From contig JAWPOE010000004.1 of assembly GCA_033345195.1 (NCBI GenBank), positions 182,569 through 246,568 of the forward strand: a stretch of DNA of 64,000 bases, in the 5' to 3' direction. A program made the position numbers and the translations under genes. Positions 911 through 4,998 of the stretch are shown in pieces (the stretch's first letter is position 1; each line of letters starts with the position of its first letter). The stretch is from Alphaproteobacteria bacterium. GTDB taxonomy: Bacteria; Pseudomonadota; Alphaproteobacteria; Rs-D84. A model generated the notes under the pieces. The model was not told the origin of the DNA. It did no database searches and saw only the letters and a program-made list of their open reading frames with translations.

Positions 911-2131
911 CTATTCTTCGGATGTTGTAATTTGTTCGCCGCCGGTTTCAACACATGTTTTATAATTTGCAGGCGATAATATTGTCCAACACTGTTTATC
1001 TAAATTCTTTTGGGTGTTTCTATCCTTGCCCTTGCCGTATACTAAATCCGAGTTGCTATACGCACCCGCAGACTCACATTTCCCAGTTTTTGTGTCAAAA
1101 TATTGTCCTGTTGAACACTTTATACATGTGCCATCTATGGGGTTTGAACCACCCTTTATCCCCGTTGAACATGGCGTACACGTATGGTCTGTTGTCGACG
1201 CAAATGCCATACCTGCATCCTTGCAGAAATATTTTGCACAACCTGATCCAGATGTATCTAAAACATGCTCTGTACTTCTAAACATTTCTCTATCAAAGCC
1301 AGGACAAAGCGTCTTTCCCTTGGTTTGTAACATATCTTCGGTCACAGGCACACAATCCGTTTTATTGGAATTTGGTGTATAACCTTCTTGACACAGCAAT
1401 ACCGGGTCAGAACAAGATGCAAGCGTCCCAACAAATGACGTAACACTTTTCCACTCTTGCCACTGACAGGCGACCTGAACTGGGGCAGCCATTACCCCAT
1501 GGTCCAATAACCTAACAACCCCAAGGACATTATTAACCTCGCCCCAATCATTCTTTTGCTTCCCATCCGCTCCATTAACGCCACGAAAATCATTTCGCCA
1601 AAATTTTGTAAAAACCTGTACATTTGCGGTCGAATTACCATTGTTTCCCCCCTCTGTTTTTACACCGGGACTACCAAAAACAGTACCTAAACTACGCGTA
1701 TCGCTATCATACGCAACTGTCTGTTCGCCACAATTTACACCAGAAAAGCCTTCTTTGCACAACCACATACAATTTGCATCTTCAATACCATTTGGCTTAT
1801 AGTATGATGTTGGACTTGTTGTATAACCTTTTTTATTCGCACATTGTATCTGCCACGGGCAAAAATGTCCACCATTCGCATTAATTCTATCCGCTATAAT
1901 TGCAACAATCGCCCCCTCATCACTATGGGTTCCAGGCGACGCATTTAATCCAAGGGCACCTGCAAGAATAAAATCAGATTCATTAAATGAACAAGATTGA
2001 CTTTTGCCATTTGTCCAACCTGTTTCCCCAACCACCTGGGTCGTTGACAAATCTAATTTTTTTGACGCCAACGCAGCCCCACAAAAACAGGGCAAGACAA
2101 ACAATAACGCCAATAATTTATACATTCCCAT
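911..2131 (-). CDS. Secreted cysteine-rich hypothetical protein (signal peptide; possible EGF-like Cys module)
   Basis: 406-aa ORF with N-terminal signal peptide MGMYKLLALLFVLPCFCGAALA and many Cys (CMWLCKEGFSGVNC, CTPCSTG..CIKCSTG). No recognisable enzyme motifs. Confidence 0.6.
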   Translation of the reverse strand: MGMYKLLALLFVLPCFCGAALASKKLDLSTTQVVGETGWTNGKSQSCSFNESDFILAGALGLNASPGTHSDEGAIVAIIADRINANGGHFCPWQIQCANKKGYTTSPTSYYKPNGIEDANCMWLCKEGFSGVNCGEQTVAYDSDTRSLGTVFGSPGVKTEGGNNGNSTANVQVFTKFWRNDFRGVNGADGKQKNDWGEVNNVLGVVRLLDHGVMAAPVQVACQWQEWKSVTSFVGTLASCSDPVLLCQEGYTPNSNKTDCVPVTEDMLQTKGKTLCPGFDREMFRSTEHVLDTSGSGCAKYFCKDAGMAFASTTDHTCTPCSTGIKGGSNPIDGTCIKCSTGQYFDTKTGKCESAGAYSNSDLVYGKGKDRNTQKNLDKQCWTILSPANYKTCVETGGEQITTSEE

Positions 2132-2140
2132 CGTCGTCCC

Positions 2141-4567
2141 CTAATCCTGATTTGCAATATAACATACACCTTTTTCATAATATCCGTTACCCAACAATGC
2201 ACATTGTTGCTGATACCATTCTGGTGCAAAGATACATTCATCCTTGGCCCTGTCGTATGTCGCCAATGGCGCCCCCAGTTCTGCATCTGAATTATATGCC
2301 TCGCACCTTACCTTTGTGGTATTTTGAACACATGTACCCCAAGATAAGTCTTTTTCATTTGGTTCCGCCCGACCAAACATATTAGTATAGAACGCAACTA
2401 ACCGTGGGTCTGTGGTTGTGACACCTTTGTCAACCCAATAACCGTCAAGCGCCTCACACTGATCTGACAATTGATAATCAATCTGTTCAACAACATTTCT
2501 AATAGATTTTTCAACCGTCAACTTAACCTGTTCTGGCAACGCATTATAATCCTGTGTGCCTTGGGTTGGGTCTGAACAATTTTGAATCGCAAAATTCTTG
2601 ACATTTGCATACAAAGACGCTGCAAAATTCGCATTTGGGGCATCGTTAATGTCCCCCTGCGCCTTTTGACTACAATTCCATGGGAATCCCATGTCCCCGC
2701 TCGCAGGCGTACATAAATCTGTCACATATTTTTCAACAGCGGTGGCACAACCTTCTGCCACACGGGTTGCATCAACAGAATCTACAAATGCCAACAAAGC
2801 AGTCAAACCACAACGTTTTCCGGCACTATTTTTCTGCAATTTGCCATTACCATCAAACGAACAACCATCTGTATCACCGTACAACGCCGCACATGCTGTC
2901 ACTTTTTCCTGACACATTGCCCGGGCAGCATACGCAGACAATGCACCAGCATTCTTGGCCGTTGTTGTATCAAAATCTTTTAATGCGCTTGATTGTGTAT
3001 CATAGCATTCTGCCATCGTGCTGACACAAGACGTTTTGACTTCTTCGATTTTTTCATCTTGTGCCTGGGCAATTTCGATTAACGCACTGCGCTTAAACTC
3101 TGTCCAAACGACATCCGCTATATCACGACACGTATCCAACGCAGATGTTGCAAACATACGCTTTTCATCCAAAAATTGATTGAACTTCGCGTTCTGCCCC
3201 AACACATCAACACTGGCATCGGCACCACCCAATGAGATTAGGTTTTCTAGTTCAAACAAACGCTGGGAATAAATCGGATCCCCCGTAGACGAATTTATAT
3301 ATACACCACTGTAATCCAAGCAACGTTTATAACCCGCCCCACACGCAACATCACCCAGGATAGCCGTTTTTACCTTTTCCATACACTCATTAACATCCGC
3401 CGAATTATGCGCACGATATTCTTCTAAGCGTGCCTCGCGCAGGAATTTTTCCGCCTGACGAACAGTGGTCAATACGGCCTCGCGCTGTTTGTTAATTTTC
3501 TTTTCATATGCATTACAATCCTGGGTAATCATAATGTTATATGCACTGGTCGCCATGTTTAAAACAGCACTGTTTTCACATGCGTCTCCAACCAATTCCA
3601 AACACTGTTTATTTGAAACATTATACAATTCTATTCCTTCTAAAACACTTAGATCAACGCCAGTATCTGTGTCAAAGATTGAACTGCTGGGGCCGCCACC
3701 CCAAATATCATCCATATCAGCAGAAAAATCCACAGTCATCAAACCAGACAGCCCATTATTTTGGGGTTGTGATTGTACTGCCTTTTTTTTCCCAGACAAC
3801 AAATCACCAATCTCATCTAAAATACTTTGCGCAGCACTGGTATCATTTTTAATTGCCATTTCACCAACTGTTGCGGTGTACATTGCCTCAACCTCTGCCG
3901 CGGATTTATCAACTGCATTTAAATTAGTATCTTCAAATCGCTGTAACAAAACCTTTGCTTCGTCCAAAGCATTTTCTGTGTCGCGGAATTCTGTAAATTT
4001 CGCACTGCAAAAGCATCTGCGATACGTATCATTTGCATTTGCACAAAACTGATCCATACATGTCGCATACGATTCGCGACACTTGGCATAGCCACCACCA
4101 ATTTTTGAAACATCTGTGAACACCGCCGTTGCACGCGCCACACGCCCCATGTTTGCATTTAAAACATTCCCTGTACTGCGCGCACGCGCCCCAGATGTCT
4201 GTGGAACCGCACTGCGTGTGACGCCAACCGACGGCTTTGCTACGACATTGCCAGAACGCGCTGCAATCGCCCCAGAGCGCGCAACAGAATTCTGACGCAC
4301 GCCACCACGCGCAACAGATGCACCAACAACATTTCCCGCACTGCGCGCACTGGACACACTTGTCCCAGAACGCCCAACCAAACCACGCGAAACATTTTGT
4401 CCCCCTGACACAGAACGCTTCAACACACGTCCATCTGCACGTGACGCAGACGAGGTTGCAACCGCACTGCGTGGATTTGGCGCCTGATCTGCATACGCAA
4501 AACCACCGACAAAAAACGTCGCAAAAAGCGCAAAAAACTTGAAAAAATCACAACAAGAACGCTTCAC
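2141..4567 (-). CDS. Large secreted protein with N-terminal Ser/Arg/Gly-rich degenerate repeats and a Cys-containing helical domain
   Basis: 808-aa ORF with a signal peptide (FFKFFALFATFFVGGFAYA) and repeated xARSGxxV motifs. It lies 9 bp upstream of the 911..2131 gene on the same strand, so the two are probably one operon. Confidence 0.6.
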   Translation of the reverse strand: MKRSCCDFFKFFALFATFFVGGFAYADQAPNPRSAVATSSASRADGRVLKRSVSGGQNVSRGLVGRSGTSVSSARSAGNVVGASVARGGVRQNSVARSGAIAARSGNVVAKPSVGVTRSAVPQTSGARARSTGNVLNANMGRVARATAVFTDVSKIGGGYAKCRESYATCMDQFCANANDTYRRCFCSAKFTEFRDTENALDEAKVLLQRFEDTNLNAVDKSAAEVEAMYTATVGEMAIKNDTSAAQSILDEIGDLLSGKKKAVQSQPQNNGLSGLMTVDFSADMDDIWGGGPSSSIFDTDTGVDLSVLEGIELYNVSNKQCLELVGDACENSAVLNMATSAYNIMITQDCNAYEKKINKQREAVLTTVRQAEKFLREARLEEYRAHNSADVNECMEKVKTAILGDVACGAGYKRCLDYSGVYINSSTGDPIYSQRLFELENLISLGGADASVDVLGQNAKFNQFLDEKRMFATSALDTCRDIADVVWTEFKRSALIEIAQAQDEKIEEVKTSCVSTMAECYDTQSSALKDFDTTTAKNAGALSAYAARAMCQEKVTACAALYGDTDGCSFDGNGKLQKNSAGKRCGLTALLAFVDSVDATRVAEGCATAVEKYVTDLCTPASGDMGFPWNCSQKAQGDINDAPNANFAASLYANVKNFAIQNCSDPTQGTQDYNALPEQVKLTVEKSIRNVVEQIDYQLSDQCEALDGYWVDKGVTTTDPRLVAFYTNMFGRAEPNEKDLSWGTCVQNTTKVRCEAYNSDAELGAPLATYDRAKDECIFAPEWYQQQCALLGNGYYEKGVCYIANQD

Positions 4568-4635
4568 GAATATTCTCTCTTTTAAGAATTATACCATTTT
4601 TTCGGCATTTGAATCAACACTAAATTATATGCAAA

Positions 4636-4998
4636 TCATATTTTCACATCGTCGACATCAATAAGCCCCATATTTACCCCCCAGAACATCGAATATAATT
4701 CATATGCGCGAGCATATAATTTATATGCAGAATCACCCGCAGCCTTGTTCCCATCATCAATCAACTGCATTGCCATTCCCAACAGGCGTTCCGACATACC
4801 CCACGCATCTGTATCAGGCGCAACGATACGTGACATTAGTTCAATACGAATATCACGCACATATTCAAATGCATCTTCGATTACCAACAAATTCATTAAC
4901 GCAATCGTCAAATCTTGATCAGACGACAAATCCAACGGATTTACCTTTTTTGCGTCATCTGCACTTTTGACCAATCTGTTTAACGATGTTTTTTTCAT
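4636..4998 (-). CDS. Hypothetical cytoplasmic protein (120 aa)
   Basis: Intact ORF between rsmH and the Cys-rich secreted genes, with no TM segment or signal peptide. Function not recognisable. Confidence 0.45.
   Translation of the reverse strand: MKKTSLNRLVKSADDAKKVNPLDLSSDQDLTIALMNLLVIEDAFEYVRDIRIELMSRIVAPDTDAWGMSERLLGMAMQLIDDGNKAAGDSAYKLYARAYELYSMFWGVNMGLIDVDDVKI

Follow-up and report, generated by a model that had tools for sequence, protein, structure and literature searches.

We analysed a stretch of 64,000 nucleotides (hereafter the window) from a genome of Candidatus Enterousia, a gut bacterium of the alphaproteobacterial order Rs-D84 with a genome of ~0.75-1 Mb, and describe here two of its genes, o808 and o406, named after the lengths of their products in amino acids (aa). 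They encode two real, lineage-wide and Sec-exported proteins that carry invariant cysteines and belong to undescribed families, and they form a probable bicistronic unit. The first gene, o808 (2141-4567, minus strand), starts with GTG. The second, o406 (911-2131, minus strand), follows after a gap of 9 bp that contains a Shine-Dalgarno-like GGGGA stretch. Both products are exported and Cys-rich, and that of o406 is also beta-rich. A sequence-only reading of this DNA had placed the two genes on the same strand, 9 bp apart, each with a signal peptide, and all of this was confirmed; both signal peptides end in AxA. That the genes are real is clear from the numerous homologues of each and from ratios of nonsynonymous to synonymous divergence (dN/dS) of 0.11-0.40 against close relatives. 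A third, small gene, o120 (4636-4998, minus strand, 120 aa), lies upstream of the pair.

Two families of exported, cysteine-rich proteins

Homologues of o808 are numerous. A word-indexed search returned at least 982 of them, and an exhaustive HMMER search gave 685 clusters at 50% identity, 241 of which had E ≤ 1e-30; every named homologue is labelled 'hypothetical'. When contigs of one genome per species were searched, relatives of o808 were found encoded in 239 stretches (239 species genomes), nearly all labelled Candidatus Enterousia or uncultured Alphaproteobacteria and coming from animal or human guts. The best 80 of these loci are from metagenome-assembled genomes (MAGs) of Candidatus Enterousia or Alphaproteobacteria. 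An exact copy of o808 is present on the 16.9-kb Logan contig SRR22345191_28311 (run SRR22345191). The word-indexed search found 17 homologues of o406, at 38-87% identity, and 69 are present in the 84 related loci that we fetched, on which all synteny counts and median identities given below are based. Neither gene is mentioned in the papers that we consulted; public MAGs already contain both, annotated as 'hypothetical protein'.

None of o808, o406 and o120 has a match above threshold in Pfam, NCBIfam, PADLOC or PHROGs. Pfam also had no match above threshold for any member of the alignments A1 (34 sequences of the o808 family), A2 (the o406 family) and A3 (the o120 family), nor for nine distant relatives of 1000-1170 aa. 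Profile searches of Protein Data Bank (PDB) sequences with the three alignments gave only chance matches or matches to designed coiled coils; for o808 there was only a chance match with E = 1.7. In the libraries searched, these are families that match no curated family or detectable solved fold. We rejected a status as mobile-element, phage or defence cargo, since tblastn found no match for o808 in phages and plasmids or for o406 in phages, PHROGs had none either, and PADLOC gave a single chance match of 12 bits and none for o808.

The signal peptide of o808 covers residues 1-26 (MKRS-CCDFFKFFALFATFFVGGF-AYA/DQ, with the cleavage site in FAYA/DQ), and that of o406 covers residues 1-22 (MGMYK-LLALLFVLPCFCGA-ALA/SK, with the site in ALA/SKK). 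By inspection, both have the type-I layout, in which a basic n-region is followed by a hydrophobic core that leads to an AxA site, as do their homologues; a lipobox and a twin-arginine motif are missing from both. The twin-arginine translocation (Tat) route was rejected for o808 because it has KR instead of RR and a long hydrophobic core. Similarly, o406 was rejected as a lipoprotein because the residues before both of its N-terminal cysteines break the lipobox rule and its homologues lack cysteines at these places.

The mature o808 protein can be divided into three regions, the first of which is a basic, disordered tail (residues 27-140; 4148-4489, minus strand) with degenerate [VT][AS]R[SA]A[TS] motifs. 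It contains seven [AVT]R[SGA][AGST] motifs, and residues 27-160 are 72% A/S/V/G/R with a net charge of +16. Structure prediction leaves the tail without secondary structure, at a predicted local distance difference test score (pLDDT) of 23-26, and it coincides with a rise in G+C to 0.55 in positions 4001-4500. The tails of 75 orthologues have 99-154 aa with 12-18 Arg and medians of one Lys and three acidic residues, and the context preferred around their Arg is again [VT][AS]R[SA]A[TS]. The sequence-only reading had described degenerate repeats here. A motif-rich, biased composition is indeed present, but there is no array of repeats in the DNA: Tandem Repeats Finder (minimum score 30) detected none in 900-5000. 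The spacing of Arg ranges from 2 to 14 in o808, and when pooled over the 75 orthologues it shows broad peaks at 4 and at 7-8; the periodicity is a degenerate compositional motif, not a repeat array. The mature N-terminus, xQAPNPR[SG] (residues 27-33; 4469-4489), is much better kept than the rest of the tail, with N31, P32 and R33 invariant or nearly so. It matches no known motif and may serve as a signal for sorting or attachment.

Beyond the tail, o808 is acidic (net charge -37) and predicted to be helical, and its 28 cysteines bear out the earlier description of a Cys-containing helical domain. Twenty of them lie in the acidic helical core (residues 141-620; 2708-4147, minus strand), the part in common with longer paralogues, where the conservation of the majority residue is mostly 0.7-0.9 per block of 20 residues (range 0.58-0.91). 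The other eight are in a variable C-terminal region (residues 621-808; 2144-2707, minus strand) of mixed helix and strand, which is the best-modelled part of the protein (pLDDT 72-87) and has a conservation of 0.40-0.67. Compared with the related locus L006, this region is 51% identical and the core 88%. All 28 mature cysteines are invariant in A1, and exactly 28 follow the conserved motif in 72 of 75 orthologues. Four C-x6-C pairs fall within predicted helices (163/170, 409/416, 514/521 and 552/559), a spacing with which two disulfides could staple one helix to another.

The mature o406 protein has 20 cysteines, 18 of them invariant in A2. Its AlphaFold2 model is fair (mean pLDDT 77) and shows a beta-rich N-terminal part, short Cys-linked hairpins at residues ~247-355 and a short helical end. 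The CxxxCxxGFxGxxC motif noticed in the sequence-only reading is present, as CMWLCKEGFSGVNC at residues 121-134 (1730-1771, minus strand), and its C121, W123, C125, G131 and C134 are invariant in A2. Its interpretation as an epidermal growth factor (EGF)-like, eukaryote-type module, however, does not hold. The stretches CKEGFSGVNC and CQEGYTPNSNKTDC of o406 do resemble the C-terminal half of an EGF module (C-x2-G-[FY]-...-C) and lie in predicted beta-hairpins, but the six-Cys pattern is absent and o406 has C-x3-C where EGF has C-x-C. A regular-expression scan of o406 and o808 with the PROSITE patterns EGF_1 and EGF_2 (C-x-C-x(5)-G-x(2)-C and C-x-C-x(2)-[GP]-[FYW]-x(4,8)-C) gave no match. A Pfam scan for EGF and other eukaryote-like domains, suggested by the same reading, found nothing above threshold in o406, o808 or o120. 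The sole match, to cEGF and below threshold, falls elsewhere in o406, on a second C-x2-G-Y...C stretch (residues 247-265; 1337-1393, minus strand), where it has E = 0.072 and 13.4 bits against a cut-off of 26.6; it recurs in only 4 of 18 members of the family, always with E ≥ 0.06.

The fold matches of o406 include no EGF structure. The top Foldseek matches are mGluR, CaSR, 4-1BB, CD40, TNFR2 and OX40, all of them weak (E of 0.18-2, probability ≤ 0.18, TM-score ~0.1-0.25). With the Cys-rich domains of tumour necrosis factor receptors (TNFR) and class-C G-protein-coupled receptors (GPCR), the region ~247-355 shares short strands and regularly spaced cysteines, but these fold matches are non-significant and are accompanied by no sequence-profile match and no Pfam match. 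We read the likeness to eukaryotic Cys-rich hairpin domains as a shared building style and not as homology. C-x2-C motifs number only two in o406 (CTPC and CIKC) and none in o808. In summary, the findings go partly against the sequence-only reading, with no EGF fold and with orthologues that are widespread, if only within the lineage, and an EGF or eukaryote-like label should not be applied to o406 in annotation.

A fixed locus with uneven rates of evolution

The 68-bp gap upstream of o808 holds a candidate sigma-70-like promoter with an extended -10 (4588-4617, minus strand; TTGATT, 18 nt, TGgTATAAT), which agrees with the consensus at 10 of 12 positions, plus the TG. Its TTGATT box is identical in all six aligned orthologous loci, and the -10 block AAAAAATGgTAnAAT is near-invariant in them, with one substitution in each of two loci; the proteins flanking these six promoters are only 53-90% identical to those of the window. 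Because o808 has this conserved promoter-like site of its own, the operon is most likely o808-o406, a bicistronic unit with o120 upstream of it. Read-through into the pair from dnaE-rsmH-o120 is possible, as there is no terminator-like site between rsmH, o120 and o808. The earlier proposal of an operon that included the small open reading frame (ORF) is thus probably right for the pair but not for o120, which is upstream of the promoter-like site. Downstream of o406, a bidirectional terminator-like hairpin (781-796, both strands) is common to the pair and to a convergent helix-turn-helix (HTH) gene (351-773; Pfam HTH_3, E = 1.7e-11), in agreement with the shared flanking terminator of the sequence-only reading; a second terminator-like hairpin lies at 830-845 (minus strand).

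Upstream of o120 is rsmH (5048-5917, minus strand, 289 aa), which encodes the 16S rRNA m4C1402 methyltransferase and is genuine (Pfam Methyltransf_5, E = 1.3e-70; TIGR00006, 229 bits). Its start overlaps by 17 nt (5901-5917) the 3' end of dnaE (5901-9308, minus strand, 1135 aa). As the sequence-only reading had it, rsmH is not followed by ftsL and ftsI, and what comes instead is a 120-aa ORF with no hydrophobic segment and the genes of exported proteins. The locus thus resembles a division and cell wall (dcw) cluster (mraZ-rsmH-ftsL-ftsI-mur) in having an intact rsmH with genes for exported proteins in the slot downstream. It differs from such a cluster in that there is no mraZ, dnaE overlaps the start of rsmH, o120 has no transmembrane segment, o808 has no penicillin-binding protein (PBP) domains, and nothing downstream is FtsL-like or PBP-like. 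Pfam found no fts, mur or any other dcw domain in the 38 ORFs of the window that were scanned, with ~15 shorter ORFs outside the scan. The order secA-dnaE-rsmH is kept in relatives, again with no mraZ upstream of rsmH, and because of this lack of mraZ we regard rsmH as fully detached from any division cluster.

The same row, dnaE-rsmH-(small ORFs)-o808-o406-HTH, recurs in most of the 84 related loci. The commonest complete order is dnaE-rsmH-mem178-o204-o808-o406-HTH, found in 30 of the 84, and the other patterns are subsets of it. The distribution and synteny thus show a pair kept at the same site across the Rs-D84 / Candidatus Enterousia lineage. The layout had been thought to indicate a lineage-specific rearrangement. 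This is right only at the level of the whole order Rs-D84, and the event is not recent, given that the layout is shared by most of the 84 loci and the o808 family is present in 239 species genomes: the layout is old, lineage-wide and fixed.

The genes between rsmH and o808 are more variable. Most relatives have two there, mem178 and o204 (for example L002:8777-9943 and L004:8830-9964). The former encodes a multi-pass membrane protein (~170 aa) that carries two invariant motifs, a CPVC directly behind its first hydrophobic segment and an NGGHA; it is absent between 4998 and 5048 and from the whole window. The latter encodes a cytoplasmic protein of ~200 aa with the near-invariant end ...SKSxVRRLGDWVKNAVNCCIE, and its long form is highly conserved (72-80% identity among the matches listed). 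Neither mem178 nor o204 of the relatives matches a known family in Pfam, PADLOC or PHROGs. The window's o120, which has no signal peptide, no transmembrane or other hydrophobic segment and no Cys, is a short form of the conserved o204 family, with the N-terminal motif AKKVNPLDLSSDQDLTIALMNL; the form found in L002 has 204 aa, and the two are 48% identical over 142 aa. We rejected the notion that it is a decaying fragment, because, of the 74 loci with a member of the family, 31 have a form of less than 190 aa (~26 of these forms have 120-156 aa) and because the dN/dS of o120 is 0.15-0.23. The few forms shorter than 120-156 aa may be miscalled or truncated. The long tail and mem178 occur together in 41 of 43 loci, and the short form goes with the lack of mem178 in 27 of 31. 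The losses of mem178 and of the CC tail cluster in the clade nearest to the window, where dnaE has an identity of 87% or more, and may thus reflect few events.

The genes of the locus evolve at very different rates. Median identities to the window are 85% for dnaE, 75% for the HTH gene, 72% for rsmH, 55% for o808, 46.5% for o120 and 32% for o406, the fastest-evolving gene of the locus; in L006, dnaE is 98% identical, o808 75% and o406 36%. Within o808, dN/dS is 0.05-0.07 in the core (residues 141-620), 0.36-0.49 in the tail (27-140) and 0.13-0.23 in the C-terminal region (621-808), and in o406 it is 0.21-0.40. The core of o808 is therefore under strong purifying selection, and both of its ends and the whole of o406 diverge much faster than the housekeeping neighbours. 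Synonymous divergence from L005 varies ~ten-fold along the locus (rsmH 0.13, dnaE 0.20, o120 0.28, o406 0.33, o808 core 0.94, HTH 1.33), a pattern that suggests mosaic recombination or allele exchange.

Paralogues and other cysteine-rich proteins

The longer paralogues of o808, of 1000-1170 aa, share its signal peptide, basic tail and core and differ in their Cys-rich C-terminus; they align to positions ~20-570 of the o808 profile. In one MAG such a paralogue occurs together with an orthologue. Paralogues of 1057-1086 aa are found at a second conserved locus, beside pth and polA (L086:8001-13228 and L085:8001-11174), which adds a gene for an outer-membrane protein of the Pom family (Protochlamydia outer-membrane protein), a weak OMP_b-brl match and another Cys-rich exported protein. 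In L086 the paralogue adjoins the Pom-family gene, and a small lipoprotein and a Cys-rich protein of 389 aa come next. A PBP1-type gene and a Mur ligase were also seen in the lineage.

The window itself has no paralogue of either gene, as shown by searching all its ORFs with profiles A1 and A2. Other Cys-rich ORFs with hydrophobic N-termini are present, none of which fits the profiles of o808 or o406: 12516-16019 (minus strand; 1167 aa, 54 Cys, one Listeria-Bacteroides repeat, Flg_new, E = 1.7e-15), 46848-47531 (plus strand; 227 aa, 14 Cys), 47607-48314 (plus strand; 235 aa, 13 Cys) and 57971-58474 (minus strand; 167 aa, 7 Cys). This genome seems to make a habit of exporting proteins rich in Cys.

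Elsewhere, the content of the window is consistent with a Gram-negative alphaproteobacterium, with Pfam matches to SecA, ExbD/TolR, LpxB, a Peptidase_M23 protein and aminoacyl-tRNA synthetases, and Rfam matched no RNA family anywhere in it. A large fraction of the proteins of this small genome have no family assignment. Four consecutive ORFs at 32264-37890 (plus strand; 291, 349, 503 and 609 aa) have starts that resemble signal peptides and no Pfam match at E ≤ 1e-5, and they may encode further uncharacterised envelope proteins. Four more ORFs have no Pfam match at limits of 1e-5 or 1e-3: 28839-31067 (minus strand, 742 aa), 40338-41372 (minus strand, 344 aa), 53699-54793 (plus strand, 364 aa) and 62286-63938 (minus strand, 550 aa). 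A 204-aa ORF at 31083-31697 (minus strand) starts with MSKGWDSVALKKLKALTGKGLSTAEIGKRLGMSKNAIVGKLNRLG and seems to resemble the alphaproteobacterial cell-cycle regulator GcrA.

Possible roles of the pair

The hosts of these genes are members of an uncultured order; genomes of the genus are mostly below 1 Mb, and its MAGs have 748-1,015 kb (PMC12306168). Enterousia are described as fermenters without a respiratory chain that retain RodA, MreB, MrdA and peptidoglycan genes, and, from their reduced genomes, a life as symbionts or parasites that probably rely on other cells has been inferred (PMC12306168). One paper reports Enterousia features to be up in emulsifier-fed mice, which has no bearing on o808 and o406.

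Our preferred reading, to which we give a rough probability of 0.45, is that o808 and o406 are parts of the envelope or cell surface. The scaffold would be o808, with an acidic helical body (~-37) stapled by disulfides and a basic tail (~+16, made with Arg and not Lys) that would attach to anionic polymers of the envelope, for example peptidoglycan or lipopolysaccharide. Its variable, exposed partner would be o406, which might touch other cells or the host, and o120 would act as a cytoplasmic accessory, for instance a chaperone or a regulator. A role of o406 in contact would fit this bacterium because it is thought to depend on other cells. The pair would have no mechanistic tie to cell division, with rsmH a mere neighbour. 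The surroundings of the paralogue support a role in the envelope, because it adjoins a Pom-family gene and there are a weak OMP_b-brl match and another Cys-rich exported protein at that locus. A constrained core with fast ends and a fast partner is also the pattern expected of exposed envelope or surface proteins, with relaxed constraint as the alternative explanation.

Several points weigh against this reading. The location of both proteins in the envelope or at the surface is one that we infer from their sequences, and neither has an outer-membrane anchor, a lipobox, a beta-barrel or a known signal for secretion beyond the periplasm. The AlphaFold2 model of o808 is weak (mean pLDDT 56, predicted template modelling score (pTM) 0.36), so that its fold and disulfide pairing are tentative, and the reading presupposes a disulfide-forming system in a host that is a strict fermenter. 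The lack of o406 in ~15-20% of the related loci means that the pair is not obligatory. Finally, fast divergence could result from relaxed constraint in a symbiont with small populations instead of surface exposure, and dN/dS is below 1 everywhere it was measured.

An analogy can be drawn with OmcA and OmcB of Chlamydia, Cys-rich exported proteins from adjacent genes that are believed to make the envelope rigid through disulfide cross-links. Here, too, a Gram-negative bacterium with a small genome has adjacent genes for Cys-rich exported proteins, and a paralogue of o808 adjoins a Pom-family gene; the analogy is one of a possible mode of action only. There are clear differences. No chlamydial Pfam family is matched by o808, o406 or the members of the alignments, o808 combines a helical body with a long basic tail, and Enterousia retains peptidoglycan genes.

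The proteins could instead be secreted to act on a protist or a eukaryotic host, as effectors or adhesins, with o406 mimicking EGF, TNFR or furin-like domains to bind receptors. The features of o406 that invite this idea are its two C-x2-G-[FY]...C stretches, the hairpin repeats with C-x2-C...G.Y, its very fast divergence and the fact that its top Foldseek matches, weak as they are, are all eukaryotic Cys-rich proteins (mGluR/CaSR and the TNF receptor family); the lineage is, moreover, gut-associated and probably dependent on partners. We nevertheless consider this role unlikely, since the PROSITE patterns of EGF fail, the G+C content and the kept synteny favour vertical inheritance over acquisition from a eukaryote, and the window has no genes for a dedicated secretion system near the pair.

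The place of the pair in the genome raises the question of a role in the periplasm as wall or division accessories that replace ftsL and ftsI, in which case the tail of o808 would reach the peptidoglycan and its helical body would scaffold synthases or hydrolases. Alphaproteobacteria usually carry ftsL-ftsI downstream of rsmH, so that the pair and o120 occupy the usual slot of these genes, and the disordered basic tail is reminiscent of the linkers of envelope-spanning regulators. The lineage also retains peptidoglycan genes (PMC12306168), and the PBP1-type gene and the Mur ligase mentioned above were seen in it. Yet o808, o406 and o120 have no PBP, FtsL, SPOR, LysM or other wall-related domain, the locus of the paralogue, near pth and polA, is an unrelated one, and rsmH is part of a secA-dnaE-rsmH row that is not a remnant of a dcw cluster. 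Such fast evolution would also be unusual for core division proteins. We regard this role as less probable than that of secreted effectors.

Least probable of all is that the cysteines bind metals or take part in periplasmic thiol redox (as a metal store or a redox buffer) instead of forming structural disulfides: they are invariant, most relatives have a neighbouring CPVC membrane protein and an o204 tail ending in CC, and an anaerobic fermenter without a respiratory chain (PMC12306168) probably has no quinone-linked DsbB route, but C-x2-C motifs are absent from o808 and only two in o406, the even Cys counts and the spacings of 6-7 residues in predicted helices suit paired disulfides, and every Cys is kept in the lineage of the window although neither the CPVC protein nor the CC tail survives there.

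The envelope reading can be extended into a more speculative one, for which we see only a slim chance. In it, Rs-D84 would be defined by a disulfide-cross-linked layer of the envelope, or by a structure for cell-to-cell attachment, with o808 and o406 at its core, and in most members the upstream CPVC membrane protein and the cytoplasmic o204 with its invariant ...WVKNAVNCCIE tail would make up a new transmembrane thiol relay that supports oxidative folding in a fermenter without a respiratory chain. Exported Cys-rich envelope proteins are of a familiar general kind in bacteria with reduced genomes, and no new mechanism is demonstrated here. The findings do make one ask by what means proteins so rich in Cys are folded in a strict fermenter.

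Candidatus Enterousia and the other Rs-D84 bacteria are widespread and uncultured inhabitants of the gut that have genomes of less than ~1 Mb and are believed to live off other cells (PMC12306168). An exported protein of 800 aa is notable in so small a genome, more so when it is found in 239 species genomes with 28 invariant cysteines and a core dN/dS of ~0.06. Standing beside a fast-evolving partner, o808 is a reasonable candidate for a part of the envelope or contact machinery of these bacteria, and a target for structure prediction and localisation.

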